Positions 3,906 to 28,159 of a stretch of DNA of 64,000 nt are shown here, piece after piece. The notes under the pieces were generated by a model. The model searched no databases, had not been told where the DNA came from, and saw only the letters and a list, made by a program, of their open reading frames with translations. The first letter of the stretch is position 1; every line of letters starts with the position of its first letter. The stretch is taken from contig JAJEAI010000201.1 of the NCBI GenBank assembly GCA_022824205.1, positions 4,704-68,703 of the forward strand, in the 5' to 3' direction. The position numbers were made by a program, and so were the translations under genes. This DNA is from Candidatus Binatia bacterium (GTDB taxonomy: Bacteria > Desulfobacterota > Binatia > UBA9968 > JAJDTQ01).

Positions 3906-4207
3906 GATTCCCGCTTTCCAGGCTGTGTCAAAACTCCAAACGAACACGGAATGGCACGGCCACCCCGAACCGTCATGGATATGAAAATAAATTCTTGTTC
4001 AATGATTTCTGGTAGTTACGGAATCCCGCTACACCCCAACGAGTCATTCCCGCGGAAGCGGGAATCCAGGCGGTGTGGGGCCGGGCAATAAGGCCGCCAG
4101 ACCCCCCACCCCTGGATTCCCGCTTCCGCGGGAATGACTCATTGGGGTGTGGGTGCCACCTCTTGTCCGCCAACGTTTTGACACAGCCTCTTCCGCGGAA
4201 TGACGAG
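3906..4207. repeat. MITE/REP-like nested palindromic element, copy A: outer IR GATTCCCGCTTTCCAGGCTGTGTCAAAAC / GTTTTGACACAGCC...GGAATGACGAG flanking a ~175-bp inner palindrome
   Basis: The inner unit GATATGAAAATAAA..TTGTTCAATGATTTCTGGTAGTTACGGAATCCCGCTACACCCCAA.GAGTCATTCCCGCGGAAGCGGGAATCCAGG is followed by its own reverse complement. The same unit recurs at copies B-F. Confidence 0.8.
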
Positions 4208-4449
4208 TTGGTACGGCGCCGCCTTGGCCTGATCCGGTCATTCCGGGACGCGTGCAGGCCGAAGAACGTCGTTGACAGCGCGTTCGGGCCTTTGATATGG
4301 CCTTGCTCAACCGCGCTCGTGCGCGGGATTTCACGAGAGCGTGACATACGGAGTGTACCTATAGCGAAAATCACCGGGTAAAGCCACATCGAACCTCGGC
4401 ACTGGAACGCCCGACACTGGAGCACCAGCAGGGAAAGGAGCGAGGGATC

Positions 4450-6021
4450 ATGAGGGAAATCGATCGACGCACGTTTCTCAAGGGCATCGGCGTTGTCGGC
4501 GGCACCGCCATCGGCCTGAGCGCGCTGCACCCGTTCGCCATCGGCGCCGAAGGGGACGTCCTGGAGTATGGGTTGGGAGCCGCGGACATCCGCCGTCTCG
4601 ATCCCATGGCCGGTCCCAACTCGACCGACAAGACGGTGCTGGAGCACGTGTACCGGGGGCTTGTGCGGCCGGTGCCCGGCGAGGTGAACGCGGAACGGTT
4701 CGAGCCCGACCTGGCGGAGAGCTGGGAGGCTTCCGGCGACCTCAAGGCGTGGACCTTCAAGCTGAGGCAGGGTGTCGAGTTCCACGGCGGCTTCGGCGAG
4801 TTCACGGCCGACGACGTGGCGTTCTCGCTGAACCGCGCCAGGAACAAGAAGACCAGCATCTACGCCAAGTTCTACAAGCAGTTCGATGACGTCAAGGCGT
4901 TGGACAAGCACACCGTCCGCATCACCCTCAAGACGCCGCAGGGCAAGCTCATCCTGTTGCCCAACCTGCTCGGGTGGCAGGGGGGCATGATCATGAGCCG
5001 GAAGGCTTCCGAGAAGCTCGGCGACAAGATCAAGACCCAGCCCATCGGCACCGGCCCGTTCGCGTTCAAGGAGCACATACCGCAGGAGCGGCTGGTGCTG
5101 GTTCGGAACGACGGCTACTACCGGGGCAAGCCCAACATCCGGCAGATCAACTTCCGCTTCCTGCCGGACGCCAGCAGCCGGAACCTCGCCTTCAAGGCCG
5201 GGGAGCTGCACATCATCGAATTGGCCCGGGAGCAGCGCGCCATCAACCAAGTCAAGGGCCCGGGCGTGGCCATCGAGTCCTTCGGTCCTTCCACGGTGGT
5301 GAAGCTTCACATGGACCGGACGCGCAAGCCGCTGGACGATCTCAGAGTACGCAAGGCCATCGCCCACTCCATCAACCGCGAGGCGCTGGTCCGTTTCATC
5401 GGTCCCGACGTGGCGTCGGTCCTTCACTCGGTGATCCCGCCCACGTTCGTGGGCTCCCTCAAGGACGTGCCCGCGGAACTCCGCTACGACTACAACCCGG
5501 AAAAGGCGAAGCAGCTCCTGGCCGACGCCGGCTTCCCCAAGGGCTTCAAGATCGATCCGGTTTTCATCAGCGAAAAGCCCATGTTCCGGCGCCCCATCGA
5601 GGTGCTTCAGAACCAGTTGCAGCAGGTTGGCATCAACATCAACATCAACGTCATCGCCCATCCGGCCTGGCACAAGAAGAACGACGAGGGCAGCAACCCG
5701 CTGGTGCTGCGGGCGGCGACGCGCTTCCCCACGGCGAACTTCATCCTGGAAGAGTTCTTCGCCAAGGGCGCGAAACGGAACTTCTCCCATTTCAACGGCG
5801 CGGACCCGTCCATTCAGAAGGCCAAGGCCCAGATCGACCCGCGGGGGCAGATCGATGCGTGGCAGGACGCCCAGGTCAAGATACTGGAGGACCTGGCGGC
5901 GCTCCCCACCCACGAGATCAAGAACGTCTACGCGCGCAAGTCCAGCGTCGACATCGGCTTCAAGCTGGAGTCGGACCTGTGCATCTGCGTGCCGCTCAAG
6001 TGGGATGCCAAGATGGGCTAA
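4450..6021 (+). CDS. ABC transporter substrate-binding protein, family 5 (DppA/OppA/NikA-like), Tat signal
   Basis: RRTFLKGIGVVGG is a twin-arginine signal. The length and overall pattern fit peptide/nickel/opine-type substrate-binding proteins. A GGAGCGAGGG ribosome-binding site lies upstream. Confidence 0.8.
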   Translation: MREIDRRTFLKGIGVVGGTAIGLSALHPFAIGAEGDVLEYGLGAADIRRLDPMAGPNSTDKTVLEHVYRGLVRPVPGEVNAERFEPDLAESWEASGDLKAWTFKLRQGVEFHGGFGEFTADDVAFSLNRARNKKTSIYAKFYKQFDDVKALDKHTVRITLKTPQGKLILLPNLLGWQGGMIMSRKASEKLGDKIKTQPIGTGPFAFKEHIPQERLVLVRNDGYYRGKPNIRQINFRFLPDASSRNLAFKAGELHIIELAREQRAINQVKGPGVAIESFGPSTVVKLHMDRTRKPLDDLRVRKAIAHSINREALVRFIGPDVASVLHSVIPPTFVGSLKDVPAELRYDYNPEKAKQLLADAGFPKGFKIDPVFISEKPMFRRPIEVLQNQLQQVGINININVIAHPAWHKKNDEGSNPLVLRAATRFPTANFILEEFFAKGAKRNFSHFNGADPSIQKAKAQIDPRGQIDAWQDAQVKILEDLAALPTHEIKNVYARKSSVDIGFKLESDLCICVPLKWDAKMG

Positions 6022-6121
6022 CGGCCTTTCCCGGTAATTGGAATGCGTTGCGGGGGCGGCCGGCCGGTGGCCCCCGCACGGAACCACCGCGGCGCAGGTT
6101 CCGGGAGGGCCTGGCGGCACC

Positions 6122-10390: not shown

Positions 10391-10430
10391 CGCCCACAAG
10401 GAGGGCCGGACACCAGCTGTGGGCGCCCTT
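10391..10430. terminator. GC-rich hairpin (GGCGCCCACA...TGTGGGCGCC) between convergent genes; possible bidirectional terminator
   Basis: A perfect 10-bp stem lies immediately after the stop codon at 10388. No strong T-run follows it. Confidence 0.4.
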
Positions 10431-10486
10431 ATAGTTCTAGACCCTCACAGATCTGGTTCGCTCTGTTGTGGAAACAGCGACTGGTA

Positions 10487-13400
10487 TCAGGACGTGGCCC
10501 GTCGGTACATCTCCTGAAAATCCGGTTCCGTTTCTAGTGCGGGCAATGCCTTTTTGAGACTATCGAGAATCCCTTGGATACGATACGCGCTGCCGGGTTG
10601 AATGGGTCCGGGTCCCACAACTCGCGTAAGGATGTCGAAGACGGTCTCCGGATACTTCGAAACACAATCACTCTCTTCCAGGACATATAGACCGTATTGG
10701 TCCCCAGGATTCAGATGGTGAGAAAATTCCGCCACAGCCTTCGGGAATGCGTCGCCGCACTCGAGCAGCAAGAGTAACATTCCCCTGGATGTCTCGGACG
10801 TGTTGCGGGCTCCCTCGTTGGGCCAATACTTTTTGAGCCACGGCAACAACGCGCTCTCCCACATCGTTGCGCGTTCCCCGGAGTCGCCATTCAGCCGTCT
10901 TCTGAGGCTGTCAAGAACCGCCGGTAGTTGATTGTTCGTCAAAGATGCAACGACTTCGCGAATCTCGTCCTCCGCCAACTCGCTTGGTGCTTCAATGCAA
11001 ATGACCATGAACAGTTCCACGAGTCGATCCCGATCATGTTCCCTGACCCCGTCCAACGTCTTGAGTACGCTCAGGAAGGGCTGTTTGAATGCGGCGAGAA
11101 GATCAGGGCCAACCTTGGGCGATAGCGCATACGCTCCCCAAAGGATGTAGGCTTCCTCGGGCGGTTGTGACGGATCGAGACGCCAGAGGAGGTGCTTGTT
11201 GGTCCAGTGTGGGTCAATCGCGAATAGGTCGTACAGCCTATGAACCAAATTGACCCGACCCCAAAGGCCTTCTGGATCGCTAACGATTTTATCAAAATAC
11301 GGTAGGATTGCCGCCGGCAATTTCCCCTGAACAGTCGGGCTGTATTTCCACAGTCGGGTCAGCGCCGCTTGTGCCAGTCTACCAGTCACATGGGTCAACG
11401 CTTGATCGGACAGATCGTGTCCATTCGGTGCTGACTCGGGCGCCCCTTCCCACGCTTTTTGCCAGAGTGTCGCAAACTCCGGTTCTCGTTCAAGGCCGTA
11501 CCTCTCTGCCAAATTGTCCACAAAACCAGCGGCCGCTGAGTCGACGCCTGAGAACAGCGTGACAGGGGCATTGGCAAGGACACGGGCGACACAGTCCTGA
11601 AGTCTCGGCGTCGACCTCTGCACGTTCGGTCCCTGCAAGTGCCAAAGGAAGAGCTGCCAGCAGCGTTGAGGATATTCTTCTTGGTCCGCCAGTCGTCGCA
11701 AAGCCCGTGCAACCTTTACGGGTCGCCGACGGATAAGCCCTTCGAGGGGCAAATCGCCGATTCCTGGATCTTGCAAGGCAGTCGTCAGACCATGAACGGT
11801 AGTCTCGACGAGTTCAGGTGGCGCAAACTCTGCCGGATCGATCCAGTGCGCTTCGCTTCCCCACGACAAGAATTCGTCGCGATCCTCATTGGCATCCCCA
11901 CCCTGCCATTTCACGGCGAGTGACCTGGACTCCTTGTCCAGTTTAGCGCCGCCAGCCGCAAGTTTGCTGAGCCGTAGCGCTTTCTCACGGTCGAGGATGT
12001 CGCTGTCGTAAGCCGAAAACGATCCTTGCCCTGCCTTCGGTCCCGCGTGAATGGCTCGAACGATATCGACGCGCAGACTTCGAGGCAAACGCATCCCTGC
12101 CAACCTTAGGAAGCGCAAGACTTCCCTCCGCAGCTCGTATTCCCACAGGCCGGGTTTCCGACCCGTGATGAGGAGTTTCCTGGCGATACCCATGTCGGGT
12201 TTTCCGCTCTCCGTGAGCGCATGAAGTGCAAGCCGCTTAAGCAGAGGCCGCCTAGACAGTACCCACCGCTCCAGGAGATTTGCCGCAAGTGCCCGGTCTC
12301 TTTGGAACAAGGCCGGGTAGCTGTCTCGGACGAGGTCTATGATGTACGTCCAATCGGCTCGGTGTAGATTTTGCCTGTGCGATGCAATAGACGGACGATA
12401 ATTTCCTGAATCTTGACGATGGCCTTCCATGTCTTCGAGCAGGGTAAGCGCTGTTTCCAGGTAGGTCGTCAGTGTCATGGCGTTTTCGGCGACGAAGCCT
12501 GGATCGTTCAGAATGTTGCGAATACGGTGCCGCATGTCTTTGTCGCCGACCAACAGTTCAAGGTGAGCGCAGGAATCCACCGCCGACAAGGCGCGTTGCT
12601 TCCCTCCGAGGGACTGTCGGAACCTCTTGTGCCACGAAGGACCGGAACGAACCACGTACCGTGGAGCGATGCTCTGGACCACCTGTTCATTGAGCCGACG
12701 GCGTTCAGCCTCGGAGGCTGTTTGTTGCATTGATGCCGGTGGCCATAGGAACGGCTCGTGATAGATCAACTCATTGTCCGAAAGAACTGTCCAGATGTGT
12801 CTGAGTTCGCTGGGGACCTCCACGGCAGGTTCGATAAGTTTCCCTCGGATCAGCCTGTGAAGGGAGGGGTGCATTTTCCCGCCCCTCTCAACTACCCAAG
12901 TCAGTACTTGGGAAATATGGAGATGCAGAGCAATCCACCGCGCCAAATGCCATGTGACCTTTCCCAATAATGGAGGACTTTGGGTACGTTCGCCTCCGTC
13001 TACCAACTGGACGTGGGAGCTGGCGTGGTCCACCCCGGCTTCGTCCAGGCTTTCAGCGCAAGATAGCAATCCCGCATCGGCGAAGATGTCTAGCCACTTC
13101 GTCAGTCTTGGGAAATCTCTTTCGTCCGTCAGCGGGGTGCTGTCGGCCAATCTTTCCGCAGCTATCGGGTCGTGCAGAGCCCACACAACGCGCTCCACGA
13201 CCGGGTCGTCCGGGCCACCCGGGAGCTTCGACATCTCATTAAGGGCTATTTGAGTGCGCGCCCGGAAGGGATCGTTCCGAATGCGTGCCCACTCTGTTAA
13301 TGTCTGGCGGAGCAGGCCATGATCGCCTTGTTTGTCATACAAAATCGGCACGACGTTCTTTGCCTGCCAGGCTCTGTCGGTTCTCTCCTTGTTTGCGTCG

Positions 13401-14164
13401 GTGCCGTCGTGGTCGGCGAACGCGTAAGCCAGCCGGAAAGAGGCTCCCTTGGAGCGTTCGGCTGCGAGAGCGTCGACCATGTAACCCATAACGGGGTCGT
13501 CGAGGCTGTAACCGATGAACACAATCGTGAACTCACGAAACAGCTCGGTGACGAATCGGGCCGCCCACTGCTCCGTAAGGTAGGCACGCCCGAAGTCGGC
13601 AGCGGTCAAAACCAGATCGGTGCCGTCGCTGTCCCCACAGATGCGGCCATGAAGATGCACAACCGACGACCAGTTGTGGCGCTTTGGCCAAGGTAGTTTC
13701 GGCGCGGAATCAACCTTCTTTTCGTCAATCCCCGCTTCCACGAAGCGGTTGTCGAAATTGGTAGTGACAAGACGGACACCCTGTTTGTGGCGCGAAAGGT
13801 CGATCAGCGCTTTGTGGTTGGTCAGTTCATCATGGGGTGGCTTCGATAGCAGAGTCATGACACAGCGACGTAGCTGTAGAGTGCCGAGACGTTCCGGCCT
13901 CTCGATCAAGTTGAGCACCTTGTCGAGTTGCGGTCGTCGACGGGTGTCGTCCTTCTCGTCGCAGTCGAGAGCTTCTCTCTCGACAATGTCAGGCGTGAGG
14001 TCTTTGGTCTTGTAGATATGCTTCACGAGACCGCCAAAGTTGGGAAGTCCAGACTCCGGTCCCATGGAAACGCCAGCCCCACAGAAGAAGACGGCACGGC
14101 CGTCGTCGAGTTCGTTCATTAGGCGAATGGGGATGTTTGGTCCCTTCGCTACGAGTTCAGGCAT
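10487..14164 (-). CDS. SIR2-like (SIR2_2) domain protein with ~950-aa alpha-helical C-terminal region; DSR-like (DSR1/DSR2-type) candidate anti-phage NADase
   Basis: The N-terminal 270 aa carry AVFFCGAGVS...GLPNFGGL, VTTNFD and HLHG, which are the signature blocks of the SIR2_2 family. The rest is helical repeats with no other motif. The GC content looks lower than in flanking genes. Confidence 0.7.
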   Translation of the reverse strand: MPELVAKGPNIPIRLMNELDDGRAVFFCGAGVSMGPESGLPNFGGLVKHIYKTKDLTPDIVEREALDCDEKDDTRRRPQLDKVLNLIERPERLGTLQLRRCVMTLLSKPPHDELTNHKALIDLSRHKQGVRLVTTNFDNRFVEAGIDEKKVDSAPKLPWPKRHNWSSVVHLHGRICGDSDGTDLVLTAADFGRAYLTEQWAARFVTELFREFTIVFIGYSLDDPVMGYMVDALAAERSKGASFRLAYAFADHDGTDANKERTDRAWQAKNVVPILYDKQGDHGLLRQTLTEWARIRNDPFRARTQIALNEMSKLPGGPDDPVVERVVWALHDPIAAERLADSTPLTDERDFPRLTKWLDIFADAGLLSCAESLDEAGVDHASSHVQLVDGGERTQSPPLLGKVTWHLARWIALHLHISQVLTWVVERGGKMHPSLHRLIRGKLIEPAVEVPSELRHIWTVLSDNELIYHEPFLWPPASMQQTASEAERRRLNEQVVQSIAPRYVVRSGPSWHKRFRQSLGGKQRALSAVDSCAHLELLVGDKDMRHRIRNILNDPGFVAENAMTLTTYLETALTLLEDMEGHRQDSGNYRPSIASHRQNLHRADWTYIIDLVRDSYPALFQRDRALAANLLERWVLSRRPLLKRLALHALTESGKPDMGIARKLLITGRKPGLWEYELRREVLRFLRLAGMRLPRSLRVDIVRAIHAGPKAGQGSFSAYDSDILDREKALRLSKLAAGGAKLDKESRSLAVKWQGGDANEDRDEFLSWGSEAHWIDPAEFAPPELVETTVHGLTTALQDPGIGDLPLEGLIRRRPVKVARALRRLADQEEYPQRCWQLFLWHLQGPNVQRSTPRLQDCVARVLANAPVTLFSGVDSAAAGFVDNLAERYGLEREPEFATLWQKAWEGAPESAPNGHDLSDQALTHVTGRLAQAALTRLWKYSPTVQGKLPAAILPYFDKIVSDPEGLWGRVNLVHRLYDLFAIDPHWTNKHLLWRLDPSQPPEEAYILWGAYALSPKVGPDLLAAFKQPFLSVLKTLDGVREHDRDRLVELFMVICIEAPSELAEDEIREVVASLTNNQLPAVLDSLRRRLNGDSGERATMWESALLPWLKKYWPNEGARNTSETSRGMLLLLLECGDAFPKAVAEFSHHLNPGDQYGLYVLEESDCVSKYPETVFDILTRVVGPGPIQPGSAYRIQGILDSLKKALPALETEPDFQEMYRRATS

Positions 14165-14262
14165 AGTCTCTACAGGTTGGGTACTTTGCCGTTCGTCGTG
14201 TCACAGGCGCATACAGGTCGGAATGCCTTACTCCAGGAGTCTCCCGGGAAATTACGCTGAGC

Positions 14263-17341: not shown

Positions 17342-17370
17342 GAAATCGGGCGTGTTGGCCGCCTCCGGGT

Positions 17371-17677: not shown

Positions 17678-20422
17678 TCATTTCCTCAGCGCCCGCCAGA
17701 CCTTCTCTCCCGTAATCGGCAGGTCGGTGATGCGCACGCCCACGGCCTGGTCCACGGCGTTGGCGATGGCCGAGGGGACGGGAAGGATGCCGCTCTCGCC
17801 CAGTCCCTTGGCGCCGTAGGGGCCGGCGCCGTTACCGTTTTCGAAGAGGATGTTGACCTGCTCGTCGGGCAGGTCGGAGATCTTCGGCAGGCGGTAGGTG
17901 AGCGCGTCGGGGGTGAGCATCAGGCCGTTCTCGTACACGGTTTCCTCGAACAGCGCCTGGCCGAGCCCCTGCAGGAACGCGCCCTGCTCCTGGGTGTGGC
18001 ACTGCTGGGGGTTGATGGCCTTGCCGGCGTCGGCGATGCCGACGTACTTGAGCACCCGCACGTCGCCCGTGTCCCGGTCCACGTGCACCTTGGCGGCCCC
18101 CCATCCCACCTCCCAGAACGGCGCGCGGGCGCCGAGGGGGGCGTCGGGATCGCGTTCGCTCACCTGCCGGCCCTCGCCGGTGATGACGCCGCCCTCACCG
18201 TTGACGTGCCGCACCAGCGCCGAGAACGGGAAGGCGATCTCCGCCAGGCGCACCTCGCCGTTGGCGAAGGTCGCGACGGCGTCGGGGCTCTGGCCCATGG
18301 AGCGAGCGGCCTCGACGAGCTGGTCGCGGACGGCCTGGGCGGCCTTCTGCACCGCGAGCCCCATGACCGTGGTGGCGCTGCTGGCGTAGGTGCCCATGTC
18401 GAAGGGGGTCGAGTCGGTGTCCAGGGACGCCACGTGGACGGCCGTGGGGCTCACGCCCAGTTCTTGGGCGGTAATTCGCGCCATGGCCGTGTGGGAGCCC
18501 TGGCCGATCTCGATGGTGCCCTCGTGCAGGGTGATGCCGCCGCTGTCGTCCACCTCCACCCGCGCGGACGAGATCTTGAAGTTGCCGCCGCCGTCCTTGC
18601 AGCCGCAAGCGACGCCGATGCCGCAGTCCGGCTCCAGCTCCTGCCCCCAGCCGATCTCCCTGGCGGCGCGCAGAAGTCCTTCCTTGAGGTCGGTGTCCAG
18701 GGGGGTCTCGCCGGGGGCGAAGTCTTCGCCCTTGTCGAGCAGGTTCTTGAGCCGGAACTCCACCGGGTCCCAGCCCATCTCCCGCGCGATGATGTCCATC
18801 TGCGATTCGTAGGCCCACACCACCTGGGGTGTGCCCATGCCCCGGAACGCGCCGGCCGGCACCGTGTTGGTGTAGACGGTGTAGGCGTGGGAACGGAGGT
18901 GCGGGATGCGGTACGGGCCGGGCGCCCGGTAGCCCGCCTTCTGCGTGACCCGGGGACCCGAGTCCGAGTAGGCGCCGCCGTCCACGTGCACGAGGCAGTC
19001 CCGCGCCACGAGCTTCCCGTCCCGGTCCACGCCGGTGCGGAGCCGGACGCGCGCGGCCGGCTTGCTCACGATGCGCGACTCCTCTTCCAGCGACAGGTGC
19101 AGGAACACCCGCCGTCCGGCCTTGCGGGACAGCGCCACCGCCAGGGGCTCGAGCTTGGTGTGGTTCTTGTTGCCGTAGGTGCCACCCACCAGCGGCACCA
19201 CCACCCGCGCGCGTTCCCGCGGTACGCCGAACATCTCCGCCAGCTCGTTGCGCACGATGAACTGGTGCTGGGTGGACGCCCACACGGTGAACCCGCCCTC
19301 ATGCCACTCGGCGACGGCGAGTTGCGGCTCCATGGAGTAGTGGGCGATCTTGGGGAAGTCGAAGGTGTGTTCGAATATCCGCTCCGATGCGGCGAACCCT
19401 TCGTCCACGTCGCCCTTGCCGCGCTCGTAGTGGAAGCTCACGTTGCCGTACTTCTTGGCCTCGTCGTCGACGCGGGGATACCCGGGAAAGCTCGGGGCGT
19501 CGTCGCTGACGGACTCGTGGATGGGCGGGGCATCGGGGTCCAGCGCCTCGTCCATGGTCATCAGCGCCGGCAGGGGCTCGTATTCCACCCGGATGAGTGC
19601 CAGCGCCGCGGTGGCCGTCTCCAGGGTCTCGGCGGCCACCGCCGCCACCGCGTCGCCCTCGTAACGGACCTTGTCCGTGGCCAGCACCGGCGTGTCCTTC
19701 ACCAGCGGGCCGTGGTAGTGCTCGACGTCCGCGAGGTCCGCGACGGTGAGCACCGCCACCACGCCGGGATGGGCTTCGGCCGCGGAAGTGTCGATGCCGA
19801 GGATGCGCGCATGGGCGTGGGGGCTGCGCAGGACCCGCCCGTAGAGCATGCCCGGGTACGTCAGGTCGGCGGTGTACACGGGCTCGCCGCGGACCTTGGC
19901 GGCGCCGTCGAGGCGGCGCTCGTCGAGCGGCCTCGGCGCCGACGTCTCCTGCCCGCGCAGCAGCGCCGCGGCCCGGTCCACCGACCGGATGATGGACCGG
20001 TAACCGGTGCATCGGCAGATGTTGCCGTCCAGCGCGTCCTTGATTTCCTCTTCCGAAGGGTCGGGATTCTCGTCCAGCAGGGCGCGGGCGGCTAGGATCA
20101 TGCCCGGCGTGCAGAAGCCGCACTCGAAGCCGCCTTCCTCCCAGAACGCCTCCTGCACAGGGTCCAGCGCGTCGTCGTTGCCAAGACCCTCGATGGTCGT
20201 CAGCGAGCGCCCGTTGACCTCGTGCGCCAGGGTCGTGCACGCGCTCACCGGGCGGCCGTCCAGCAGCACCGTGCAGGAGCCGCACACCTCCACCTCGCAA
20301 CTCGTCTTGGTGCCCTTGAGCCCCAGGTCGCGGCGCAGGAAGTCCGCCAGCAACAGTTCCGGCGCCACGCTGGCGCCGCGCGCCTGGCCGTTCAGCTCGA
20401 ATTGAATCTCGATCTCGTTCAT
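17678..20422 (-). CDS. molybdopterin aldehyde oxidoreductase, MOP-like (fused N-terminal 2x[2Fe-2S] domain plus xanthine-dehydrogenase-family Mo-binding domain)
   Basis: The N-terminus carries CEVEVCGSCTV and CGFCTPG...CRCTGY, which are the [2Fe-2S] motifs. The remaining ~750 aa resemble a CoxL/XdhB-type Mo subunit. At 914 aa the length matches the single-chain MOP type. Confidence 0.8.
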   Translation of the reverse strand: MNEIEIQFELNGQARGASVAPELLLADFLRRDLGLKGTKTSCEVEVCGSCTVLLDGRPVSACTTLAHEVNGRSLTTIEGLGNDDALDPVQEAFWEEGGFECGFCTPGMILAARALLDENPDPSEEEIKDALDGNICRCTGYRSIIRSVDRAAALLRGQETSAPRPLDERRLDGAAKVRGEPVYTADLTYPGMLYGRVLRSPHAHARILGIDTSAAEAHPGVVAVLTVADLADVEHYHGPLVKDTPVLATDKVRYEGDAVAAVAAETLETATAALALIRVEYEPLPALMTMDEALDPDAPPIHESVSDDAPSFPGYPRVDDEAKKYGNVSFHYERGKGDVDEGFAASERIFEHTFDFPKIAHYSMEPQLAVAEWHEGGFTVWASTQHQFIVRNELAEMFGVPRERARVVVPLVGGTYGNKNHTKLEPLAVALSRKAGRRVFLHLSLEEESRIVSKPAARVRLRTGVDRDGKLVARDCLVHVDGGAYSDSGPRVTQKAGYRAPGPYRIPHLRSHAYTVYTNTVPAGAFRGMGTPQVVWAYESQMDIIAREMGWDPVEFRLKNLLDKGEDFAPGETPLDTDLKEGLLRAAREIGWGQELEPDCGIGVACGCKDGGGNFKISSARVEVDDSGGITLHEGTIEIGQGSHTAMARITAQELGVSPTAVHVASLDTDSTPFDMGTYASSATTVMGLAVQKAAQAVRDQLVEAARSMGQSPDAVATFANGEVRLAEIAFPFSALVRHVNGEGGVITGEGRQVSERDPDAPLGARAPFWEVGWGAAKVHVDRDTGDVRVLKYVGIADAGKAINPQQCHTQEQGAFLQGLGQALFEETVYENGLMLTPDALTYRLPKISDLPDEQVNILFENGNGAGPYGAKGLGESGILPVPSAIANAVDQAVGVRITDLPITGEKVWRALRK

Positions 20423-20552
20423 GGGTTCCTCGGTGGGGAGGTTTCGCGGGTTCTTGCGGCGGACTCGATCATCTGTAGCAGATCGCCGTGCGGGCCGCGA
20501 GGAGGAAACGACGAGGAAAACATCGTTGCGGTTGGCCGCCGACGCCCCTCAA

Positions 20553-20778
20553 CGTCATTCCCGCGGAAGCGGGAATCCAGGGGTGGGGGGTGTGGCGGCC
20601 TCATTGCCCGGCCCCACCCCGCCTGGATTCCCGCTTCCGCGGGAATGACTCATTGGGGTGTAGCGAGATTCCGCAACTACCAGAAATCATTGAACAAGTT
20701 TTTGTTTTCATATCAATGACGATTCGAGGAGTCTCTGCCCTGTGAGTATTGACACAACCTGAGAAGCGGGAGACAAGG
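20553..20778. repeat. MITE/REP-like element copy C (reverse orientation, left half truncated)
   Basis: The sequence GTCATTCCCGCGGAAGCGGGAATCCAGG...CATTGGGGTGTAGCGAGATTCCGCAACTACCAGAAATCATTGAACAAGTTTTTGTTTTCATATCAATGACGA...TTGACACAACC lies between the UbiD stop and the MOP start. Confidence 0.75.
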
Positions 20779-20787
20779 GAGTGGGGC

Positions 20788-22233
20788 TCACGACCAGTAC
20801 GTGGTGCGGTCCACCGGGATGTGCGCGAGCACTTCGCCGGGGATGTAGTCTTCCACCTTGATGCGCGCCATGGCCTCGTCCGGGACCTTGGAGACGGGGG
20901 AGAAGGGGCGGTCCAGGGGGCGGGTGGCGTCGACGATCATCACCGACGTCTTTGTTTCGTCCACCACCGTGGGGTCGAGGTAGTTGCCGGTGAAGGTGGG
21001 CTGCATGATCGACACCTGCCGGTGCGGCTGCACGCGGGTGGCCAGGGCCCACAGGATCTCCGTGGGGTTGTAGACGTCGATGTCGTCGTCGAAGACGAAG
21101 ACGTGCTTGGCGTGGAGCTCGGTGAGGGCGGCGGCCGCGGCGCGGCCGGGGTCGCCCTCGGAGAGCTTCTTCATGGCGATGAAGATGTTGTAGTGGGCGT
21201 GGCGCCCGGCCTTGCACACGGCGGTGACGCCGGGCACGGCTTCGCGGATGCGCCGCAGGTAGGCACCTTCCCGCGGCAGGTCGAGCCAGGGCTTGTCGCC
21301 CTCGGGCGTGATCACCGACTGGTACATGGCGTGGTTGCGGAAGTTGATGGCGCGCACCTCGTAGCGGCAGGCGGAGAAGAAGCGTTGCGGTCCCAGGTAA
21401 CCCGGCGCTTCGCCGAAGGGGCCGTCGACGATGCGTTCGCCGGGTATCAGCGCGCCCTCGACGACGATCTCCGCGTCCGCGGGAATCAGCAGGTCGTCGC
21501 CCCAGGTGGTGGACGGCGTCACCCGGAGCGGCTCGCCGAGGTAGGCGCCGATGACGTCGTATTCGCTCACCTCGAAGGGGCCGGTGTAGCACGCGCCCAT
21601 GTAGAACGCCGGGTGGTGTCCCAGCACCGTGGCCACCGGACATTCCAGGCCCTGGTCCTCGTAGTCGCGGAAGATGATCCACTGGTGGTGCTGCGAGTGG
21701 TAGTGGGAGGTGTGGTTCTTCGACTTGATCTCCATGCGGTGATACGAGGCGTTGTAGATGCCTTGCCGGCGGTCCTTGGCGATGGTGCACAGGGTGATGT
21801 AGGGGCCGCCGTCCATGTAGTGGTGGCGCATGATGGGGAGCTCGTAGAGGTCCACGTCGCCGCCGCTCCGGACGTTCTCCATCACCGGCGCTTCGCCGTT
21901 CTCCACCACCACGGGCGCCACGCGGTTGCGCTCGATGTCCACGCACGCCTCGGCCATCCGCGCCCGGCTCATCTCCTTGGGAAGGCCGAGGGCGATCTGG
22001 GTCTTGCGCTGGGAGATGGTGAAATTCATCACCAGCTTGAAGTCGCCGACGCGGCCGTGCAGGTTGCGCGGCCGCTCGAAGATGAGCATGGGGAACTTCC
22101 GGGCGGCGCCCAAGTGCTTGATGATGGCGCTCACGTCGTAGCGCGCGGGGTCCACCTCCCGCTCCACGTGCACCACCTCGGCGGGGATCTCACGGCGGCA
22201 GTCTTCGAGGAAGGTGCGCAGGCTCTTGGGCAT
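20788..22233 (-). CDS. UbiD-family (prenylated-FMN-dependent) decarboxylase
   Basis: The length of 481 aa and the conserved blocks, such as GPYITLCTI, YHRMEIK, DDDIDVYNPTEILWAL and VQPHRQV, match UbiD/PAD1-type carboxy-lyases. Confidence 0.8.
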   Translation of the reverse strand: MPKSLRTFLEDCRREIPAEVVHVEREVDPARYDVSAIIKHLGAARKFPMLIFERPRNLHGRVGDFKLVMNFTISQRKTQIALGLPKEMSRARMAEACVDIERNRVAPVVVENGEAPVMENVRSGGDVDLYELPIMRHHYMDGGPYITLCTIAKDRRQGIYNASYHRMEIKSKNHTSHYHSQHHQWIIFRDYEDQGLECPVATVLGHHPAFYMGACYTGPFEVSEYDVIGAYLGEPLRVTPSTTWGDDLLIPADAEIVVEGALIPGERIVDGPFGEAPGYLGPQRFFSACRYEVRAINFRNHAMYQSVITPEGDKPWLDLPREGAYLRRIREAVPGVTAVCKAGRHAHYNIFIAMKKLSEGDPGRAAAAALTELHAKHVFVFDDDIDVYNPTEILWALATRVQPHRQVSIMQPTFTGNYLDPTVVDETKTSVMIVDATRPLDRPFSPVSKVPDEAMARIKVEDYIPGEVLAHIPVDRTTYWS

Positions 22234-22243
22234 GTCGGCTCGG

Positions 22244-23059
22244 CTACTCGATGTCGGAATGGCTTCGCGGCACCACCACGAGATTCGCGGTCACCTCGCC
22301 GACGTCGGGAATGCGCTTGATGGCCGCCACCACGCCCTCCACCGTAACCGGCGGGGACACCATGCCGGACACGGTCACCGTTCCGTTGTGGGCCTTCACG
22401 TCGATGGGCAGGCCGCGGTACAGGTCGGACTGGAGCAGCGTCGCCTGGGTCTTCCGCGCCAGTGCCAAGTCTTCGAAGGCTTGCTTGGAGGCCGGCGTCT
22501 CGGCGAATGCCCCGAGCCGTGCCGTGGTGCCGATGACCTCGCTGGCGGCGTCCACGCCCATGGCGAGATTGAGCACCAGGTGGTAGCGGGTCGGGTCCTG
22601 CCAGTCGTGGCCGAACAGGGACATGAGGCGCCGGCTGCGGGCCCGGTCGGTGTGCTCGAGCTGCTTGCGGATGGTACCCTCGTCCACGGCGAGGCGCGAC
22701 CGCAGCAGGTCGATGCGCAGCTCCATGGAGCCGGTCAGGAATACCTTCAACACATGGGAGACTCCGGGAAGCAACTCGTGCCCCACGTGGCCGTGGTAAA
22801 CCATCGGGCCGGCCTGGGCCATCTCGCACATGGCCGCCTGGAGCGCGATGCGGTAGGGCCGCAGGTCCTGCAGCCACTGTTCCCACCAGTGCGGCTCCTT
22901 CTCAGTGATGTCGTCGAGCTTGGCGCGCGGCACGCCGTAGTTGGGCAGCGTTGCCGCCAGGTCCTGCCGTCCCACGCACTTGTAGCTCAGGGACTTCGCG
23001 ACCCGGTTGGCGACTTCCTCAGCGCCCTGGATACCCTCGTAGATCATGATGACCGACAT
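22244..23059 (-). CDS. cytidylate-kinase-like (AAA_33-type) family protein with C-terminal BON domain
   Basis: The C-terminal VKAHNGTVTVSGMVSPP..VEGVVAAIKRIPDVGEV is BON-like. The N-terminal half resembles cytidylate-kinase-like family proteins. The gap to the UbiD start is 11 nt. Confidence 0.5.
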   Translation of the reverse strand: MSVIMIYEGIQGAEEVANRVAKSLSYKCVGRQDLAATLPNYGVPRAKLDDITEKEPHWWEQWLQDLRPYRIALQAAMCEMAQAGPMVYHGHVGHELLPGVSHVLKVFLTGSMELRIDLLRSRLAVDEGTIRKQLEHTDRARSRRLMSLFGHDWQDPTRYHLVLNLAMGVDAASEVIGTTARLGAFAETPASKQAFEDLALARKTQATLLQSDLYRGLPIDVKAHNGTVTVSGMVSPPVTVEGVVAAIKRIPDVGEVTANLVVVPRSHSDIE

Positions 23060-23172
23060 GACGAACCCTCCTTTCCAAAGGGACGCGACACCAGACCATG
23101 CTTGACCTCACAATTCAGCATACTGCCGGGACGGGGAATAGGCAACGAAGAATTGACGGGGCAGGGCGCTGG

Positions 23173-23410
23173 CCCCCCAATGAGTCATTCCCGCGGAAGC
23201 GGGAATCCAGGCGGGGTGGGGCCGGGCAATGAGGTCGCCACACCCCCCACCCCTGGATTCCCGCTTCCGCGGGAATGACTCATTGGGGTGTAGCGAGATC
23301 CCGTAACTACCAGAAATCATTGAACAAGTTTTTATTTTCATATCAATGACGACTCGATGGGCCTCCGCCCCATGAGTCTTGACACAGCCGCTTCCGCGCG
23401 AATGACGACC
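23173..23410. repeat. MITE/REP-like element copy D
   Basis: It has the same inner palindrome plus the outer arm CTTGACACAGCCGCTTCCGCGCGAATGACGACC. Confidence 0.8.
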
Positions 23411-23484
23411 ATAGAACGTGACGAAACTTGTGGCGATTGGCCGCCCTTGGAGGGTCCGCACCCACCCTGCTATACGGTGTCGGC

Positions 23485-25401
23485 ATGGGATACCCGCTGA
23501 AACGTTCCAGTTTGGCGGGACCGCTGGGGCGGCTTGCAGCGGTCGGCACGCTGCTCGTTGCGGCGCTGCTCGTTAGAACGCTTGCCGCGAGCCCCACGGA
23601 GGGTTCCCACCCATCTGCCGGCGCGGGTCCGACCCTTGAGCTGCGCGTCGCGCAGGCCGGCCGCCAGACTCCCATCGGGCAGGTCCAGGGGCGCGGCCAC
23701 ATCTCGCCTTTCCGCGGACGGCGGGTGACCACCACCGGCATCGTGACCGCCGTGGACACGGACGGCTTCTACCTGCAGGACCCGGCGGGAGACGGCGACC
23801 CCGATACCTCGGACGGCATCTTCGTCTTCACGCGAAGGGCTCCGGCGGCCGCCACCGGCGACCGGCTGCGGGTGAGCGGCGTGGTCACGGAGTTCCAGCC
23901 CGGCGGCGCGGCCACCGGCAACCTCACCGTCACGCAGATCACGCGCCCGCGGCTCACGCGCTTGTCCCGCCGCAACCGGCTTCCCGCCCCGGTGGTGTTG
24001 GGGTCCGGAGGGCGCGTTCCGCCCGGCCGCGTCATCGACAACGACGGGTTCGCGGTGTTCGATCCGGGAGAAGACGGCATCGACTTCTACGAGACCTTCG
24101 AAGGCATGCGGGTCACCGTCAGGGACGCGGTAGCCGTAAGCCCAACCAGCCGTTTCGGTGAAATCTTCGTGCGCGCTCGCGGTACCGCGTCATCGGGTTT
24201 GAGCCCGCGCGGCACCCTCACGCTGCGCCCGGATGACTTCAACCCCGAGCGCATCCAGATCGACGACGACTTCGGACTGAGTCCCATGGCCACGCCGCAT
24301 GTCCAGGTGGGCGATTCCCTGGGCGACGTGACCGGCGTGATGAGCTATGGGTTCGGCAACTACGAGGTGCGTTTCACCGAGCGCTTCAGGCGCACGCGGG
24401 GCGGGCTGAAGCCCGAGGTCACGTCCTTGCGGGGCGGCGGCGACCACCTCACCATCGCCACCTTCAACGTGCTCAACCTCGACCCCAACGACGGCGACGG
24501 CGACACGGACGTGGCGAGCGGCCGTTTCGACGCCGTGGCGTCCATCATCGCCCGCAACCTGCGGCACCCCGACATCGTGGCCCTCCAGGAGATCCAGGAC
24601 AACGACGGCTCCGCCAAGACCGGGGTCAAGGCCGCCGGCGCCACGCTGCGCCTGCTCGTGGACCGCATCGCGGCCCTGGGACCGGTGCGCTACCGCTTCA
24701 TCGACCACCCGTTCATCGGCGACGACACCAGCGGCGGCCAGCCCGGCGGCAACATCCGCGTGTCCTTCCTCTACAACCCGGCCCGCGTGGAGTTCGTCCC
24801 CGGCTCGGTGGCCACGGTCACGGATCCCGCGGACCAGCGCACCAACCCGCGCAACCCGTTCTTCAACGGCCGCCTGTCGCTGGCGGCGAGCTTCCGCCCG
24901 CGTGCTTCCGGCCATGCGCCCGTCACCGTGGTCAACAACCACTTCAATTCGAAGCGCGGCAGCAGCCCGTTGTTCGGAGAGGTCCAGCCCTTCACGGAGC
25001 GCCAGGAAGATCCGGCGGTCAACGGCGGTCTGGGCAACCGCCGGAGACAGGTCGAGGCCGTGCAGGCGTGGGTTGCCCGGCGGCTCGCGACACAGCCCGA
25101 CGCCGCCATCGTCGTCCTCGGCGACTTCAACGAGTTCGCGTTCGTCTCCCCGCTCCGGGTCCTCGAACGCAGCCTCCGGAACCTCACGGAAACGCTGCCC
25201 CCGACCGAGCGCTACACCTACATCTTCGAGGGCAACGCCCAGTCCCTGGACCACATCCTGGTGAGCCCTTCGCTGGGCGCGTCCGCCGAAGTCGACATCG
25301 TCCACGTCAACGCCGAGTTCGCGGAAACCGCGGCGCGTGCCAGCGACCACGACCCGATCGTGGTGCGGGTGAGGCTGCCACGGACGGGAGCTGAACGATG
25401 A
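23485..25401 (+). CDS. secreted ExeM/NucH-type extracellular nuclease (endonuclease/exonuclease/phosphatase family)
   Basis: A signal-peptide-like N-terminus runs from MGYPLKRSS.. (ATG 23485); the ORF frame opens at 23428. The EEP motifs LTIATFNVLNLD...IVALQEIQD...SDHDPIVV are present. Confidence 0.7.
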   Translation: MGYPLKRSSLAGPLGRLAAVGTLLVAALLVRTLAASPTEGSHPSAGAGPTLELRVAQAGRQTPIGQVQGRGHISPFRGRRVTTTGIVTAVDTDGFYLQDPAGDGDPDTSDGIFVFTRRAPAAATGDRLRVSGVVTEFQPGGAATGNLTVTQITRPRLTRLSRRNRLPAPVVLGSGGRVPPGRVIDNDGFAVFDPGEDGIDFYETFEGMRVTVRDAVAVSPTSRFGEIFVRARGTASSGLSPRGTLTLRPDDFNPERIQIDDDFGLSPMATPHVQVGDSLGDVTGVMSYGFGNYEVRFTERFRRTRGGLKPEVTSLRGGGDHLTIATFNVLNLDPNDGDGDTDVASGRFDAVASIIARNLRHPDIVALQEIQDNDGSAKTGVKAAGATLRLLVDRIAALGPVRYRFIDHPFIGDDTSGGQPGGNIRVSFLYNPARVEFVPGSVATVTDPADQRTNPRNPFFNGRLSLAASFRPRASGHAPVTVVNNHFNSKRGSSPLFGEVQPFTERQEDPAVNGGLGNRRRQVEAVQAWVARRLATQPDAAIVVLGDFNEFAFVSPLRVLERSLRNLTETLPPTERYTYIFEGNAQSLDHILVSPSLGASAEVDIVHVNAEFAETAARASDHDPIVVRVRLPRTGAER

Positions 25402-25656
25402 CCGGACGCCCCCGCATGAGGTCGGAAACGTTCGGAACCTGGAAATACGGAACTCGGATGTCTGTTTTTCCAGGTTCCGTCGCGTCGAAGTGGATCGAGC
25501 AAGGCGTCCAGGCATGGACCGGGTCGTCGTTCTTGACTCGAAGCGACCGACGTCTAATTGACAGCCGATGGTTTGTCGGATAGGTTCCTGCCGGCTTTTG
25601 TGCCCGGTTTGCGCGCATCGAACGCTGCATTTCGTTCGTCGACACGGGACCACGAG

Positions 25657-26655
25657 ATGACCCTGCCCAAAGTTGCGCTTATCCTGACCGGAGGCACCAT
25701 CGACTCGGTGGGTGCCGACCGGCTCGACCTCGCTTGGTACATCGAGAACAACAAGCGGCTCGGCGAGGGCGAATTGGTGGGCTCCGTTCCCGAGTTGGCC
25801 GCCATCGCCGAGGTGGAGGAGGTGCCGTTCCGGCGGCTTCCGAGTCATGCGTTGGTAAACCGGGACTGGCTCGACCTGGCGGGGCTGCTGCACGGGATTT
25901 TCGAGCGCGGCGAGGCCGACGGCGCGGTCATCACCCACGGCACCAACACCCTCGAAGAGACCGCCTACTTCCTGAACTTGGTGTTAAAGACCGATAGGCC
26001 GGTGGTGCTGGTGGGGTCCATGCGGCCCGCGTCGGCGCTGGGCGCGGACGGCTACCTGAACCTGTTCAACGCGGTGCGCGTGGCGGCGGAACCGGCATCC
26101 CGCGGGCAGGGCGTGCTGGCGGTGCTGAACGACCGCATCTACGGCGCCCGGGACCTGACCAAGACGGCCACGTACCGGGTGGAGGCGTTCCAGGGACGGG
26201 AACTCGGGCCTTTGGGCTTCGCCGACGGCGACGGCCGCGTGTGCTACTACCACCGCATCGTCAAGCCTCACACCACCGCCACCGAGTTCGACGTGGCGCG
26301 GCTGGAGTCCCTGCCCCGGGTCGATGTCGTCGTGTCGCACGCGGGCGCCGACGGCGCCATGATCGACGCCTGCGTGGCGGCCGGCGCCAGAGGCATCGTC
26401 TGCGCCGCCACCGGCGCGGGCCGTCCCACGCCGGCTCAGGACGAGGCCTTCGCCCGCGCCCGGGAGAAAGGCGTGGTCGTGTGCATTGGCAGCCGGGTCG
26501 GTTCGGGGAGGGTGGCCCGGAGTCCGGGTTTGCGCCAGCGCGGCGTCGTCACCGCTGACAACCTCCAGCCCTGGAAGGCACGGGTGTTGCTGGCCCTGGC
26601 CCTCAGTGCCACCGAAGACCCCGACGCCATCCAGCGGATGTTCGATACGTACTGA
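25657..26655 (+). CDS. L-asparaginase (type II family)
   Basis: LTGGTIDS is the threonine active-site motif. HGTNTLEETAYFL is also present. The start is refined to the ATG at 25657. Confidence 0.8.
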   Translation: MTLPKVALILTGGTIDSVGADRLDLAWYIENNKRLGEGELVGSVPELAAIAEVEEVPFRRLPSHALVNRDWLDLAGLLHGIFERGEADGAVITHGTNTLEETAYFLNLVLKTDRPVVLVGSMRPASALGADGYLNLFNAVRVAAEPASRGQGVLAVLNDRIYGARDLTKTATYRVEAFQGRELGPLGFADGDGRVCYYHRIVKPHTTATEFDVARLESLPRVDVVVSHAGADGAMIDACVAAGARGIVCAATGAGRPTPAQDEAFARAREKGVVVCIGSRVGSGRVARSPGLRQRGVVTADNLQPWKARVLLALALSATEDPDAIQRMFDTY

Positions 26656-26707
26656 CGCTCAGATCGAATCCGTCAGTCTTACCTCACCACCGTCACCTCT
26701 CTGATCG

Positions 26708-26985
26708 TCATTGATATGAAAATAAAATCCTGTTCAATGATTTCTGGTAGTTACGGAATCCCGCTACACCCAATGAGTCATTCCCGCGGAAGCGGGAATC
26801 CAGGCGGGGTGGGGCCGGGCAATGAGGTCGCCACACCCCCCACCCCTGGATTCCCGCTTCCGCGGGAATGACTCATTGGGGGGGCCGACGCCCCATTTTC
26901 ATTCCCCTTTGTGTCGGCTGCAAGCCGACATGGGTGATTCCCGCCCCCGATTGGGGTCGAGGGCAAGCTTCCGCGGGAATGACTC
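26708..26985. repeat. MITE/REP-like element copy E (full left arm plus accessory hairpin TCGGCTGCAAGCCGA)
   Basis: It has the same unit, followed by ...GTGTCGGCTGCAAGCCGACATGGGTGATTCCCGC... Confidence 0.8.
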
Positions 26986-27046
26986 AGGAGAAAGCGACGG
27001 GGATCGATGCGGGTTCCAGATAGCATGTTCGGATGAGCACCGAACT

Positions 27047-27805
27047 TCAGTGCATGTGCTGGCCGCCGTCCACGCTGATGGACTGGCCGGTGACGAAGTC
27101 GCTGTCGTCGGAAGACAAGAAGATCACCGTGCCAACCAGGTCGTCCGGGTACTGGTCGCGCTGGAAGGCGCGGCTCTTGCGCCGGTTCTCCAGTTGCTGG
27201 GGAGTGGTGACGCCTTCCTGGTTGTCGCCCGAGATGGTGAGGCCGGGCATGATGGCGTTGACGTTGATTCCGTCGGGACCGATCTCCCGCGCCAGCGCCC
27301 GGGTGAATCCGAGCACGCCGGCCTTGGACGAGACGTAGTGCAGGAACATCGGCGTCCCGCCCAGGATGGTGCCCGAGGAGATGTTGATGATCTTCCCCTT
27401 GCCCTGCGCCTTCATGGCCGGATAGACCGCCTGCACGCACAGGAACAGGCCCTTGACGTTCACCGCCATGACCCGGTCCCACTCGTCCTCGGGGATCTCC
27501 ATGAAGGACTTCTTCGTGAGCGCCGTGTAGAGGCCGGCGTTGTTCACCAGGATGTCGATGCGCCCGTACTCCTTCAGCACCGCGTCGGCCATCTCGCGGG
27601 TCCTCTCCGGGGATGAGACGTCCACCGCCACGGGGATGGCCTCGCCGCCGTCCTTCTTGATCTCCGCCGCCACCTGCGTGGCCGCCTCCACCTGGATGTC
27701 GGCCACGGCTACCTTGGCGCCTTCCTGCGCCAGCGCCTTGGAGTAGGCCCGGCCAATGCCGATGCCGCCGCCCGTCACGATCGCCACCTTTCCGTCCAAA
27801 CGCAT
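27047..27805 (-). CDS. SDR-family oxidoreductase
   Basis: The N-terminus is GKVAIVTGGGIGIGRA. The active-site motif is YVSSKAG. The length is 252 aa. Confidence 0.8.
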   Translation of the reverse strand: MRLDGKVAIVTGGGIGIGRAYSKALAQEGAKVAVADIQVEAATQVAAEIKKDGGEAIPVAVDVSSPERTREMADAVLKEYGRIDILVNNAGLYTALTKKSFMEIPEDEWDRVMAVNVKGLFLCVQAVYPAMKAQGKGKIINISSGTILGGTPMFLHYVSSKAGVLGFTRALAREIGPDGINVNAIMPGLTISGDNQEGVTTPQQLENRRKSRAFQRDQYPDDLVGTVIFLSSDDSDFVTGQSISVDGGQHMH

Positions 27806-27842
27806 GATGGATTCCTCCTTTACCGAATCTTATCCGATGAAT

Positions 27843-28159
27843 TCAGGTAGTTACAGACGTCCGTCTTCGTCATTCCCGGCGCTCCAATACGTTATTTCCG
27901 CCCCCCAATACGTCATTCCCGGTCCCCTCTCCGTCATTCCCGCCCCCTCTCCGTCATTCCCGCCCCTTCTCCGTCATTCCCGCGGAAGCGGGAATCCGGG
28001 CGGGGTAGGGCCTGGGGCAATGGGGCCGCCACACCACCGCCCCTGGATTCCCGCTTCCGCGGGAATGACGGAGAGGGGGCCGAAGTCTCCTTTTCAACGG
28101 CCTGTGTGTCGGCCGAAAGCCGGCATGGGTGATTCCCGCGAAACAGGCTGTGACGAAAC
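27843..28159. repeat. MITE/REP-like element copy F, including a 3x21-bp minisatellite (CTCTCCGTCATTCCCGCCCC) at ~27925-27990
   Basis: There are five GTCATTCCCG occurrences in 130 bp. The core is GCGGAAGCGGGAATCCGGGCGGGGTAGGG...CCCCTGGATTCCCGCTTCCGCGGGAATGACGG. The outer-arm variant is GATTCCCGCGAAACAGGCTGTGACGAAAC. Confidence 0.75.

Follow-up and report, generated by a model that had tools for sequence, protein, structure and literature searches.

Palindromic repeats recur between the genes of a 64,000-nt stretch of contig JAJEAI010000201.1 from Candidatus Binatia bacterium (assembly GCA_022824205.1, positions 4,704 to 68,703; this whole stretch is referred to as the window). Which class of repeat are they, and which enzyme would act on them? 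A first-pass annotation had called them MITE/REP-like (miniature inverted-repeat transposable elements, MITEs; repetitive extragenic palindromes, REPs) and had proposed a REP-associated tyrosine transposase (RAYT) or IS200/IS605 gene as their partner. The window repeats belong to an already described class, that of dRS3, CGTC-1 REPs and NTS/SRM (NTS, "Neisseria transformation sequence"; SRM, Ssn-related motif). We put at about 65% the probability that the arrays they form are NTS/SRM-type hairpin repeats of the Ssn type, in the same motif class as Neisseria dRS3/NTS and CGTC-1 REPs. The overall architecture resembles that of Neisseria intergenic mosaic elements (NIMEs), here in an uncultured Binatia-like bacterium.

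Identity of the Repeat Core

The basic unit is a 28-nt core, (C/A)GTC-ATTCCCGC-GGAA-GCGGGAAT-CCAG. The published NTS consensus is CGTCATTCCCGCGMAVGCGGGAATCYRG (Chenal et al. 2025, Nat Commun, PMC11893778). At up to two mismatches, 12 matches to this consensus were identified in the window (one exact, four with one mismatch and seven with two), with 0 expected from shuffles, and the mismatches were confined to base 1 (A for C) and the loop base M (G). The core also fits the dRS3 consensus ATTCCC-N8-GGGAAT. Eleven perfect units of the form GTC-ATTCCCGC-N4-GCGGGAAT-CCA/CCG were found, and seven units carry AGTC instead of CGTC.

According to Chenal et al., the site-specific nuclease SsnA binds the NTS hairpin solely in single-stranded DNA (ssDNA) and cuts a few nucleotides 5' of it; the nucleotides critical for the enzyme are the GTC directly 5' of the palindrome (cleavage) and the C directly 3' of it (binding) (PMC11893778). 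Both were present in 12 of 12 window copies. Loop identity is dispensable for Ssn and loop extension is tolerated (Chenal et al., PMC11893778), so the long-loop variant of 24 nt seen in copies E2 and E5 (Table 1) is also accommodated by the NTS class.

All six large copies and both fragments listed in the first-pass annotation were located at or near their assigned positions. Repeat finding showed family copies in both orientations, pairwise 75-100% identical and with unrelated flanks. The AT-rich 22-mer TGTTCAATGATTTCTGGTAGTT occurred five times exactly (0 expected, 100 dinucleotide shuffles), and perfect palindromes with a tag and an 8-bp stem numbered 278 in the window, Binatia-type and metagenome loci taken together, against 0 in a mononucleotide-shuffled control. 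The same loci were occupied by the same elements in an independent metagenome-assembled genome (MAG) locus, L024 (95-96% identical to the window), and intergenic gap lengths were identical in an independent ENA scaffold. An origin of the copies by assembly duplication is therefore excluded.

Using a gene map based on third-position G+C (GC3) together with Pfam annotation, we found every copy to be intergenic or at a gene terminus, as had been claimed, and five of the seven intergenic gaps within 17341-28207 are filled by elements. The flanking genes are metabolic (DUF6062, molybdo-hydroxylase, UbiD, cytidylate-kinase-like, EEP-family, asparaginase and SDR by Pfam). The recurring peptide of the false open reading frames (ORFs) noted earlier, SFPRKRESR, was found 11 times and is the translation of the core; the spurious ORFs that the arrays generate are an annotation hazard.

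A GIY-YIG Nuclease as Recurrent Neighbour

The partner enzyme of the NTS motif class was published in 2025; the ssnA gene is typically flanked by the motif, and in N. meningitidis SsnA lowers transformation by NTS-containing DNA (PMC11893778). The presence of a partner was investigated in 120 metagenome and 114 viral-collection contigs that contain the core 25-mer GTCATTCCCGCGNAAGCGGGAATCC (234 contigs, 1.7 Mb; individual contigs and loci carry L numbers). Inspection of the flanks in metagenome contigs showed that small GIY-YIG ORFs begin within a few nucleotides of the end of the motif, and these were tested independently of the 2025 paper. A hidden Markov model built from four of them detected homologues in 6/120 metagenome and 2/114 viral-collection contigs, all eight being single-domain proteins (Pfam PF01541) of ~95 aa. 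Unbiased clustering of ORFs within 300 nt of the motif placed the GIY-YIG family as the top recurrent neighbour, and it was the only recurrent neighbouring protein family in the 234 contigs. Four contigs (L030, L046, L047 and L174) showed the gene in an NTS(+)-gene-NTS(-) bracket, with tags outward and gaps of ~10-20 nt. The NTS flanking the ssnA gene in L046 has the GGAA loop, as in the window. The published association of NTS and ssnA (PMC11893778) is thus reproduced in other taxa.

A search for SsnA homologues returned at least 8000 matches; the best 120 were 64-100% identical to the first query and included named members from several phyla, and none of these 120 carried a Binatia label. 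The SsnA-like proteins of L030, L046, L047, L092 and L174, contigs of very different G+C, shared 58-65% mutual identity (L045, 41%), and the DNA motif was kept. Judged from the sequences, this conservation would argue for either strong constraint or frequent horizontal transfer of an NTS-ssnA-NTS cassette.

A different partner was also considered, namely a single-copy RAYT encoded elsewhere in the genome that would copy the dimers in trans as REPINs. Inverted REP doublets forming a hairpin are the defining REPIN architecture and are present in the window, and Bertels and Rainey linked the Neisseria version of the palindrome, the ATTCCCGCGCAGGCGGGAATC repeat, to the Group 2 RAYT NMAA_0235. Using phmmer with E. 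coli RayT (E up to 10), we detected no RAYT in the ORFs of the window, in agreement with the first-pass annotation, nor in those of 25 related MAG loci (~200 kb; 254 kb together with the window). The same query gave one match in the 234 NTS contigs, a RAYT-like ORF adjoining an NTS dimer in the metagenome contig L131, against eight contigs with SsnA-like genes. Only the C-terminal third of model NF047646 (REP-associated tyrosine transposase) is covered by this ORF (1932-2297), which scored 59 bits, under the NCBIfam cut-off of 80. Di Nocera et al. reported no species in which CGTC repeats flank a RAYT (PMC3733652). The window tag is (C/A)GTC and not the GTAG of characterised RAYTs; GTAG occurs only inside the AT-rich box described below, 26-30 nt away from the tag. 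Copying by a RAYT is thus unlikely, and the RAYT/IS200-IS605 family was probably the wrong partner to look for.

In L131, a head-to-head NTS dimer marks the start of this ORF, and the contig stops 30 nt further on; truncation of a RAYT gene by the dimer may account for the ORF. No insertion sequence (IS) was noticed in the window and the ~200 kb of related MAG sequence, RayT being the only transposase family searched for in the 25 loci.

Composition of the Elements

Cores occur mostly in head-to-head pairs, tags outward, around a G/C-rich spacer of ~42 nt with complementary ends; five short-loop dimers and one long-loop dimer were found in the window, with outward tags and spacers of ~42 nt in all. 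In the orientation of E1, a full element starts with a half-site followed by TTTCCAGGCTGTGTCAA and ~40 variable nt, and continues with a 71-nt AT-rich box (AT-box; GTCATTGATATGAAAATAAAATCTTGTTCAATGATTTCTGGTAGTTACGGAATCCCGCTACACCCCAATGA), a core with a CCAGG end, the spacer and a core on the opposite strand. Its last part is the mirrored first unit, terminating in TTGACACAGCC…GCGGGAATGAC.

Table 1. Coordinates and composition of NTS elements in the window, and location of half-site arrays.
Feature	Position	Strand	Composition	Context or remark
E1	3907-4204	+	half-site + GGCTGTGTCAA unit 3907-3971; AT-box 3972-4042 (+); NTS 4042-4069 (+); spacer 4070-4111; NTS 4112-4139 (-); mirrored unit, TTGACACAGCC at 4178; degenerate half-site 4194-4204	sole copy with both outer arms; divergent genes, ferredoxin 3601-3861 (-) and SBP_bac_5 4450-6021 (+)
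E2	17369-17675	+	AT-box 17369-17439 (+); long-loop NTS 17439-17491 (+), 24-nt loop insert; spacer; long-loop NTS 17528-17581 (-); ~67-nt unit ending in half-site 17645-17655; extra half-site 17664-17674	extra half-site adjoins Mo-hydroxylase stop codon
E3	20553-20775	-	NTS 20553-20580 (+); spacer; NTS 20623-20650 (-); AT-box 20650-20720 (-); remnant of unit, TTGACACAACC at 20749	
E4	23173-23406	-	NTS 23183-23210 (+); spacer; NTS 23253-23280 (-); AT-box 23280-23350 (-); unit with TTGACACAGCC at 23379; half-site 23396-23406	spacer orientation relative to AT-box opposite to that of E3
E5	26707-26985	+	AT-box 26707-26776 (+); NTS 26776-26803 (+); spacer; NTS 26846-26873 (-); M module 26874-26933; long-loop NTS 26934-26985 (-)	convergent genes asparaginase / SDR
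E6	27815-28139	+	variant AT-box ~27815-27868; tandem 20-21-nt half-site array 27869-27971; NTS 27972-27999 (+); spacer; NTS 28043-28070 (-); M module 28071-28139	variant AT-box abuts ribosome-binding site and start of SDR gene
Solitary NTS	48696-48723	-	half a spacer on tail side	5' leader or first ~40 codons of longest ORF, DUF1156 methyltransferase gene
Solitary NTS	58212-58239	+	slightly degenerate, one stem mismatch; then half a G-rich spacer	21 nt downstream of stop, gene 58260-58760 (-)
Half-site array, window	27869-27999			65% G+C
Half-site array, L061	~350-450			L061/L103: 42% and 67% G+C
Half-site array, L103	~5850-5945			see L061

The arms are mirrored, as the first-pass annotation had described for a ~90-bp arm and a ~180-bp hairpin. 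The mirrored part is just the distal 45-54 nt, or 70 nt in E2. This gives hairpins of 105-147 nt and not ~180, and the AT-rich 71-nt part is one-sided in every window copy. The stems of the cores are perfect over 8 bp, and folding of the dimers as ssDNA gave −51 to −88 kcal/mol (z −9 to −19; z −10.5 for the whole of E1). Site-specific inversion was considered as a candidate, given that E3 and E4 share their AT-box arms as direct repeats, whereas their central 105 nt are reverse-complementary at 99%. It was rejected; no inversion is needed because the AT-box sits on either side of the asymmetric spacer, and on both sides in L013.

The composition of the copies bears on whether they could be classical MITEs, that is, an internally deleted IS with terminal inverted repeats …GGCTGTGTCAA / TTGACACAGCC… moved by the transposase of a parent IS. 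In E1 and several related loci, GGCTGTGTCAA…TTGACACAGCC arms lie on both sides, giving a palindromic unit of 220-300 bp; among the window copies, the nesting inside outer inverted repeats proposed in the first-pass annotation is complete only in E1. The same units are one-sided in E2-E4, and in L017, L025 and L006 two or three of the ~67-nt units with TTGACACAGCC stand in tandem; an NTS half-site bounds each of them. No target-site duplication was found at the ends of E1, the module composition is different in every copy, and no candidate parent was noticed between arm pairs in the 254-kb motif map, RayT again being the only transposase looked for in the 25 loci. A MITE origin is therefore highly improbable. 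The REP-like part of the earlier label stands, as the copies agree with CGTC-1 REPs in every descriptive respect, and the MITE part does not.

The elements could also act at the level of RNA or transcription, as bidirectional terminators, mRNA-stabilising hairpins, small RNAs or an outward promoter in the AT-box. The copies are intergenic, several of them just 3' of genes, and their hairpins are very stable; in ~9 of 31 copies the AT-box points its outer end towards the start of a gene close by, and in E6 a variant AT-box adjoins the SDR ribosome-binding site. A gathering scan of the window against Rfam gave no match, and between 16.5 and 28.5 kb no sigma-70-like promoter was predicted and only five terminator-like sites were found, below the shuffle mean of 6.4. 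NTS dimers are without a T-tract terminator, and the sole terminator-like site inside the elements is a weak one, with a stem of 5 bp, in the E5 M module (26881-26894). Moreover, the elements are found in either orientation, whether the adjoining genes are divergent, convergent or tandem, and the core is conserved, together with a DNA nuclease gene, over contigs that differ widely in G+C. A primary role of this kind is very unlikely on these grounds.

The related MAG loci show that the modules are separable. Dimers without an AT-box occur there, the AT-box may flank the dimer on either side or on both, and module content varies from copy to copy. The M module is common to E5, E6, L012, L015 and L020, and the long-loop core (24-nt loop insert) was found in E2, E5, L003, L006 and L014. 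The distance between AT-box and core is nearly fixed: in 30 of 31 copies, 26-30 nt (mode 27) separate the core of the AT-box from the NTS tag, with the AT-box always on the tag side. AT-boxes that are cut short begin at …CTTGTTCAATG. The AT-box was inspected for the consensus of an integration host factor site, with no full WATCAANNNNTTR match.

Half-sites (tag, left stem arm and ~9 nt) of 18-21 nt form one-orientation arrays with a complete NTS at the end in three unrelated taxa (Table 1). Within the Binatia-type loci, half-site arrays of 20-21 nt were found in E6 and L006. No explanation of this architecture was found in the text of two papers available to us.

Distribution and Turnover

The core and its accessory modules differ in distribution. 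The core 25-mer was present in at least 120 metagenome contigs, the 120 examined spanning 32-72% G+C, and in 114 viral-collection contigs; in the metagenome contigs it usually stood in a head-to-head dimer, often with a different partner palindrome. A scan of one genome per species for the AT-box 22-mer found two MAGs only, labelled Candidatus Binatia bacterium (JAJDXX01) and "uncultured Syntrophobacterales" (CAZFIU01), the latter 95-96% identical to the window. Going by these MAG labels, the window's host most likely belongs to Binatota. The four accessory modules gave 35, 17, 24 and 7 matches in the 0.25 Mb of Binatia-type sequence, whereas the 1.7 Mb of other NTS-bearing loci contained none. 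The core is universal and the accessory modules are lineage-specific, because the latter are absent from those 1.7 Mb.

The occurrence of the exact 25-mer in viral-collection contigs, together with the documented use of dRS3 as an integration site by Nf prophages, could indicate that the repeats serve as targets for phage or IS110 elements. The genes flanking the arrays are metabolic by Pfam, with no recombinase or phage domains, and the AT-box had no match in the viral collection. Such a role would also account for the use of the sites and not for their origin or dimer architecture. We regard it as extremely improbable. A phage origin of the AT-box was rejected, given its absence from the viral collection.

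Comparison of close relatives showed that arrays gain and lose modules between two genomes that are ~95% identical. In E2, the left NTS loop has an exact 24-nt insert at 17455-17478 that is absent from the L024 ortholog, and the right arm has the insert in both genomes. Two readings suggest themselves: copying from one arm to the other (hairpin-templated conversion), or a second NTS allele that propagates. Colinearity of the window with the related MAG ends exactly at array E5 (window ~26978 / L017 ~992). Beyond the SDR gene, the related MAG carries a different array with the AT-box in the opposite position, followed by 7 kb unmatched in the window. Contigs L008, L015 and L147 (MAG/ENA) end inside repeats; the arrays break assemblies.

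Proposed Explanation

By analogy with Neisseria, we propose that when DNA becomes single-stranded, as incoming transforming or conjugative DNA or as a recombination or replication intermediate, each NTS would fold into its 8-bp hairpin. A single-domain GIY-YIG Ssn nuclease of ~95 aa would bind the hairpin, requiring the GTC 5' and the C 3' of the stem, and would cleave the strand that carries it, a few nucleotides 5' of the tag. In a head-to-head dimer, both strands would present a correctly oriented NTS, and either strand of an array-flanked gene would therefore be cut at both ends. Such cutting may limit or redirect homologous recombination of the flanked segment. The candidate partner in the window's host is thus a Binatia Ssn nuclease that recognises the window NTS on ssDNA, and the repeats have probably spread as non-autonomous relatives of an NTS-ssnA-NTS cassette.

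Several points weigh against this explanation. Neither the 64-kb window nor the 25 related MAG loci (~200 kb) yielded an ssnA homologue, and we know of nothing on competence or on the uptake of ssDNA by Binatia. The published SRM search pattern, HGTCWYN(0-2)YYVSBRHN(0-5)WNVSBRGN(0-2)RNCYNB, which is a search heuristic and not a functional definition, matched 1 of 12 window copies (shuffle mean 0.9). The 11 others miss it because the local GGAA loop has G where the pattern demands non-G; the single match, NTS 48696-48723, is also the sole window copy with 0 mismatches to the NTS consensus. The predicted minimum-energy fold of a dimer as naked ssDNA is one long hairpin and not two small NTS hairpins, a fold that would compete with Ssn binding. 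The function of the AT-box and the other modules is left unexplained by the Ssn reading. A role of Ssn outside Neisseria is not established in the text of Chenal et al. available to us (PMC11893778). In the published survey, ~19% of SRM-rich genomes were without ssnA (PMC11893778).

An extension of the Ssn explanation is that the lineage-specific modules are passengers that entered by insertion on the tag side of the NTS, close to the position of Ssn cleavage. It is founded on the fixed NTS-AT-box distance in 30 of 31 copies and on the half-site arrays that end in a full NTS in three unrelated taxa; we hold it to be decidedly unlikely. If it were true, Ssn cleavage of ssDNA would be recombinogenic in vivo and drive array growth, and NTS/Ssn would be a mobile, self-expanding system based on a GIY-YIG nuclease and not only a restriction-like modulator of transformation.

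Other Features of the Window

In L024, ~22 nt stand in place of a 6.1-kb block of lower G+C (56-60%) that occupies 10392-16557 of the window. The block codes for a 1225-aa SIR2 protein (match to PADLOC Dsr1, E 4e-161), as well as an AAA_21 ATPase and a DUF4276 protein that match HEC-01 A and B. This block is a strain-specific defence-island insertion, and no NTS was found at its borders. A second defence-type cluster, at 38988-52571, contains a PLD-SNF2 helicase (PADLOC PLD_Helicase, E 2e-231), a type IIG-like methyltransferase, and a DUF1156 methyltransferase and DUF499 ATPase (Hma-like components). The solitary NTS with the perfect consensus falls inside this cluster, at the 5' end of the DUF1156 gene. 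A 305-nt inverted repeat (28859-29163 / 61898-62202, 75% identity) is unrelated to the NTS family. It sits in two opposite-strand ORFs, 28207-29910 (weak TctC-family match) and 61661-62857, and probably reflects paralogous genes. A tRNA/tmRNA scan of the window found none.

Implications

The results add the uncultured phylum Binatota to the known range of the NTS/dRS3/CGTC-REP class and, by inference, of the Ssn ssDNA-nuclease system, with a core identical to that of Neisseria despite an unrelated host of 65% G+C. NIME-like mosaic arrays are thus not peculiar to Neisseria. New here are the host lineage, the GGAA-loop and long-loop variants, and the Binatia-specific accessory modules. As these variants lie outside the published search patterns, pattern-based surveys would undercount such genomes. 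The fixed position of a module beside the tag and the recurrence of half-site arrays in unrelated taxa provide a concrete handle on array growth. Speculatively, they suggest that arrays grow by tag-side events near the Ssn cut site.

Comparison with Known Systems

The window core and the Neisseria NTS/SRM motif are identical in the GTC tag, the 8-bp stem and the 3' C, and the A at base 1 of window copies is permitted by the published SRM pattern (PMC11893778). Both are directional, intergenic and clustered around genes. They differ in that the predominant window loop, GGAA, lies outside the published NTS and SRM search patterns, and in that window copies are nearly all head-to-head dimers inside larger, lineage-specific composites. 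The host phylum, Binatota, is without mention in the parts of Chenal et al. available to us (PMC11893778).

REPIN-RAYT systems have in common with the window elements hairpin doublets of ~100 nt that are intergenic and present in many copies. The recurrent neighbour of the window motif across taxa is a GIY-YIG nuclease and not an HUH transposase.

CGTC-1 tagged REPs have a CGTC (or TGTC/CCTC) tag, an 8-bp stem starting with AT, a 4-nt loop and a CCA tail (Di Nocera et al. 2013, PMC3733652). They are mostly head-to-head dimers with conserved spacers of 20-100 bp; the same authors equated Neisseria dRS3 with CGTC-1 and concluded that CGTC repeats are without a dedicated transposase (PMC3733652). 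The window core agrees with this description throughout, including the complementary spacer ends and the lack of an associated transposase. The five phyla of that survey exclude the phylum of the window's host, and clusters were rare in it outside Neisseria and Wolbachia (PMC3733652), whereas clustering is strong in the window.

NIMEs (dRS3 and RS units) consist of 20-bp ATTCCC-N8-GGGAAT inverted repeats flanking repeat units of 50-150 bp in arrays (PMC1797815). The units of the window arrays measure 20-71 nt, and the boundaries of many are NTS half-sites and not full dRS3. Their modules (AT-box, TTGACACAGCC units and M) are unrelated to the RS families of Neisseria and confined to the Binatia-type lineage, and the window arrays flank metabolic genes, whereas those of Neisseria flank surface-antigen genes. 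In both systems, palindromes punctuate arrays of repeat modules, a G+C-rich palindrome alternates with an AT-richer module, and syntenic arrays differ between close relatives. What the window arrays share with NIMEs is the architecture, and not family membership in the Neisseria sense.

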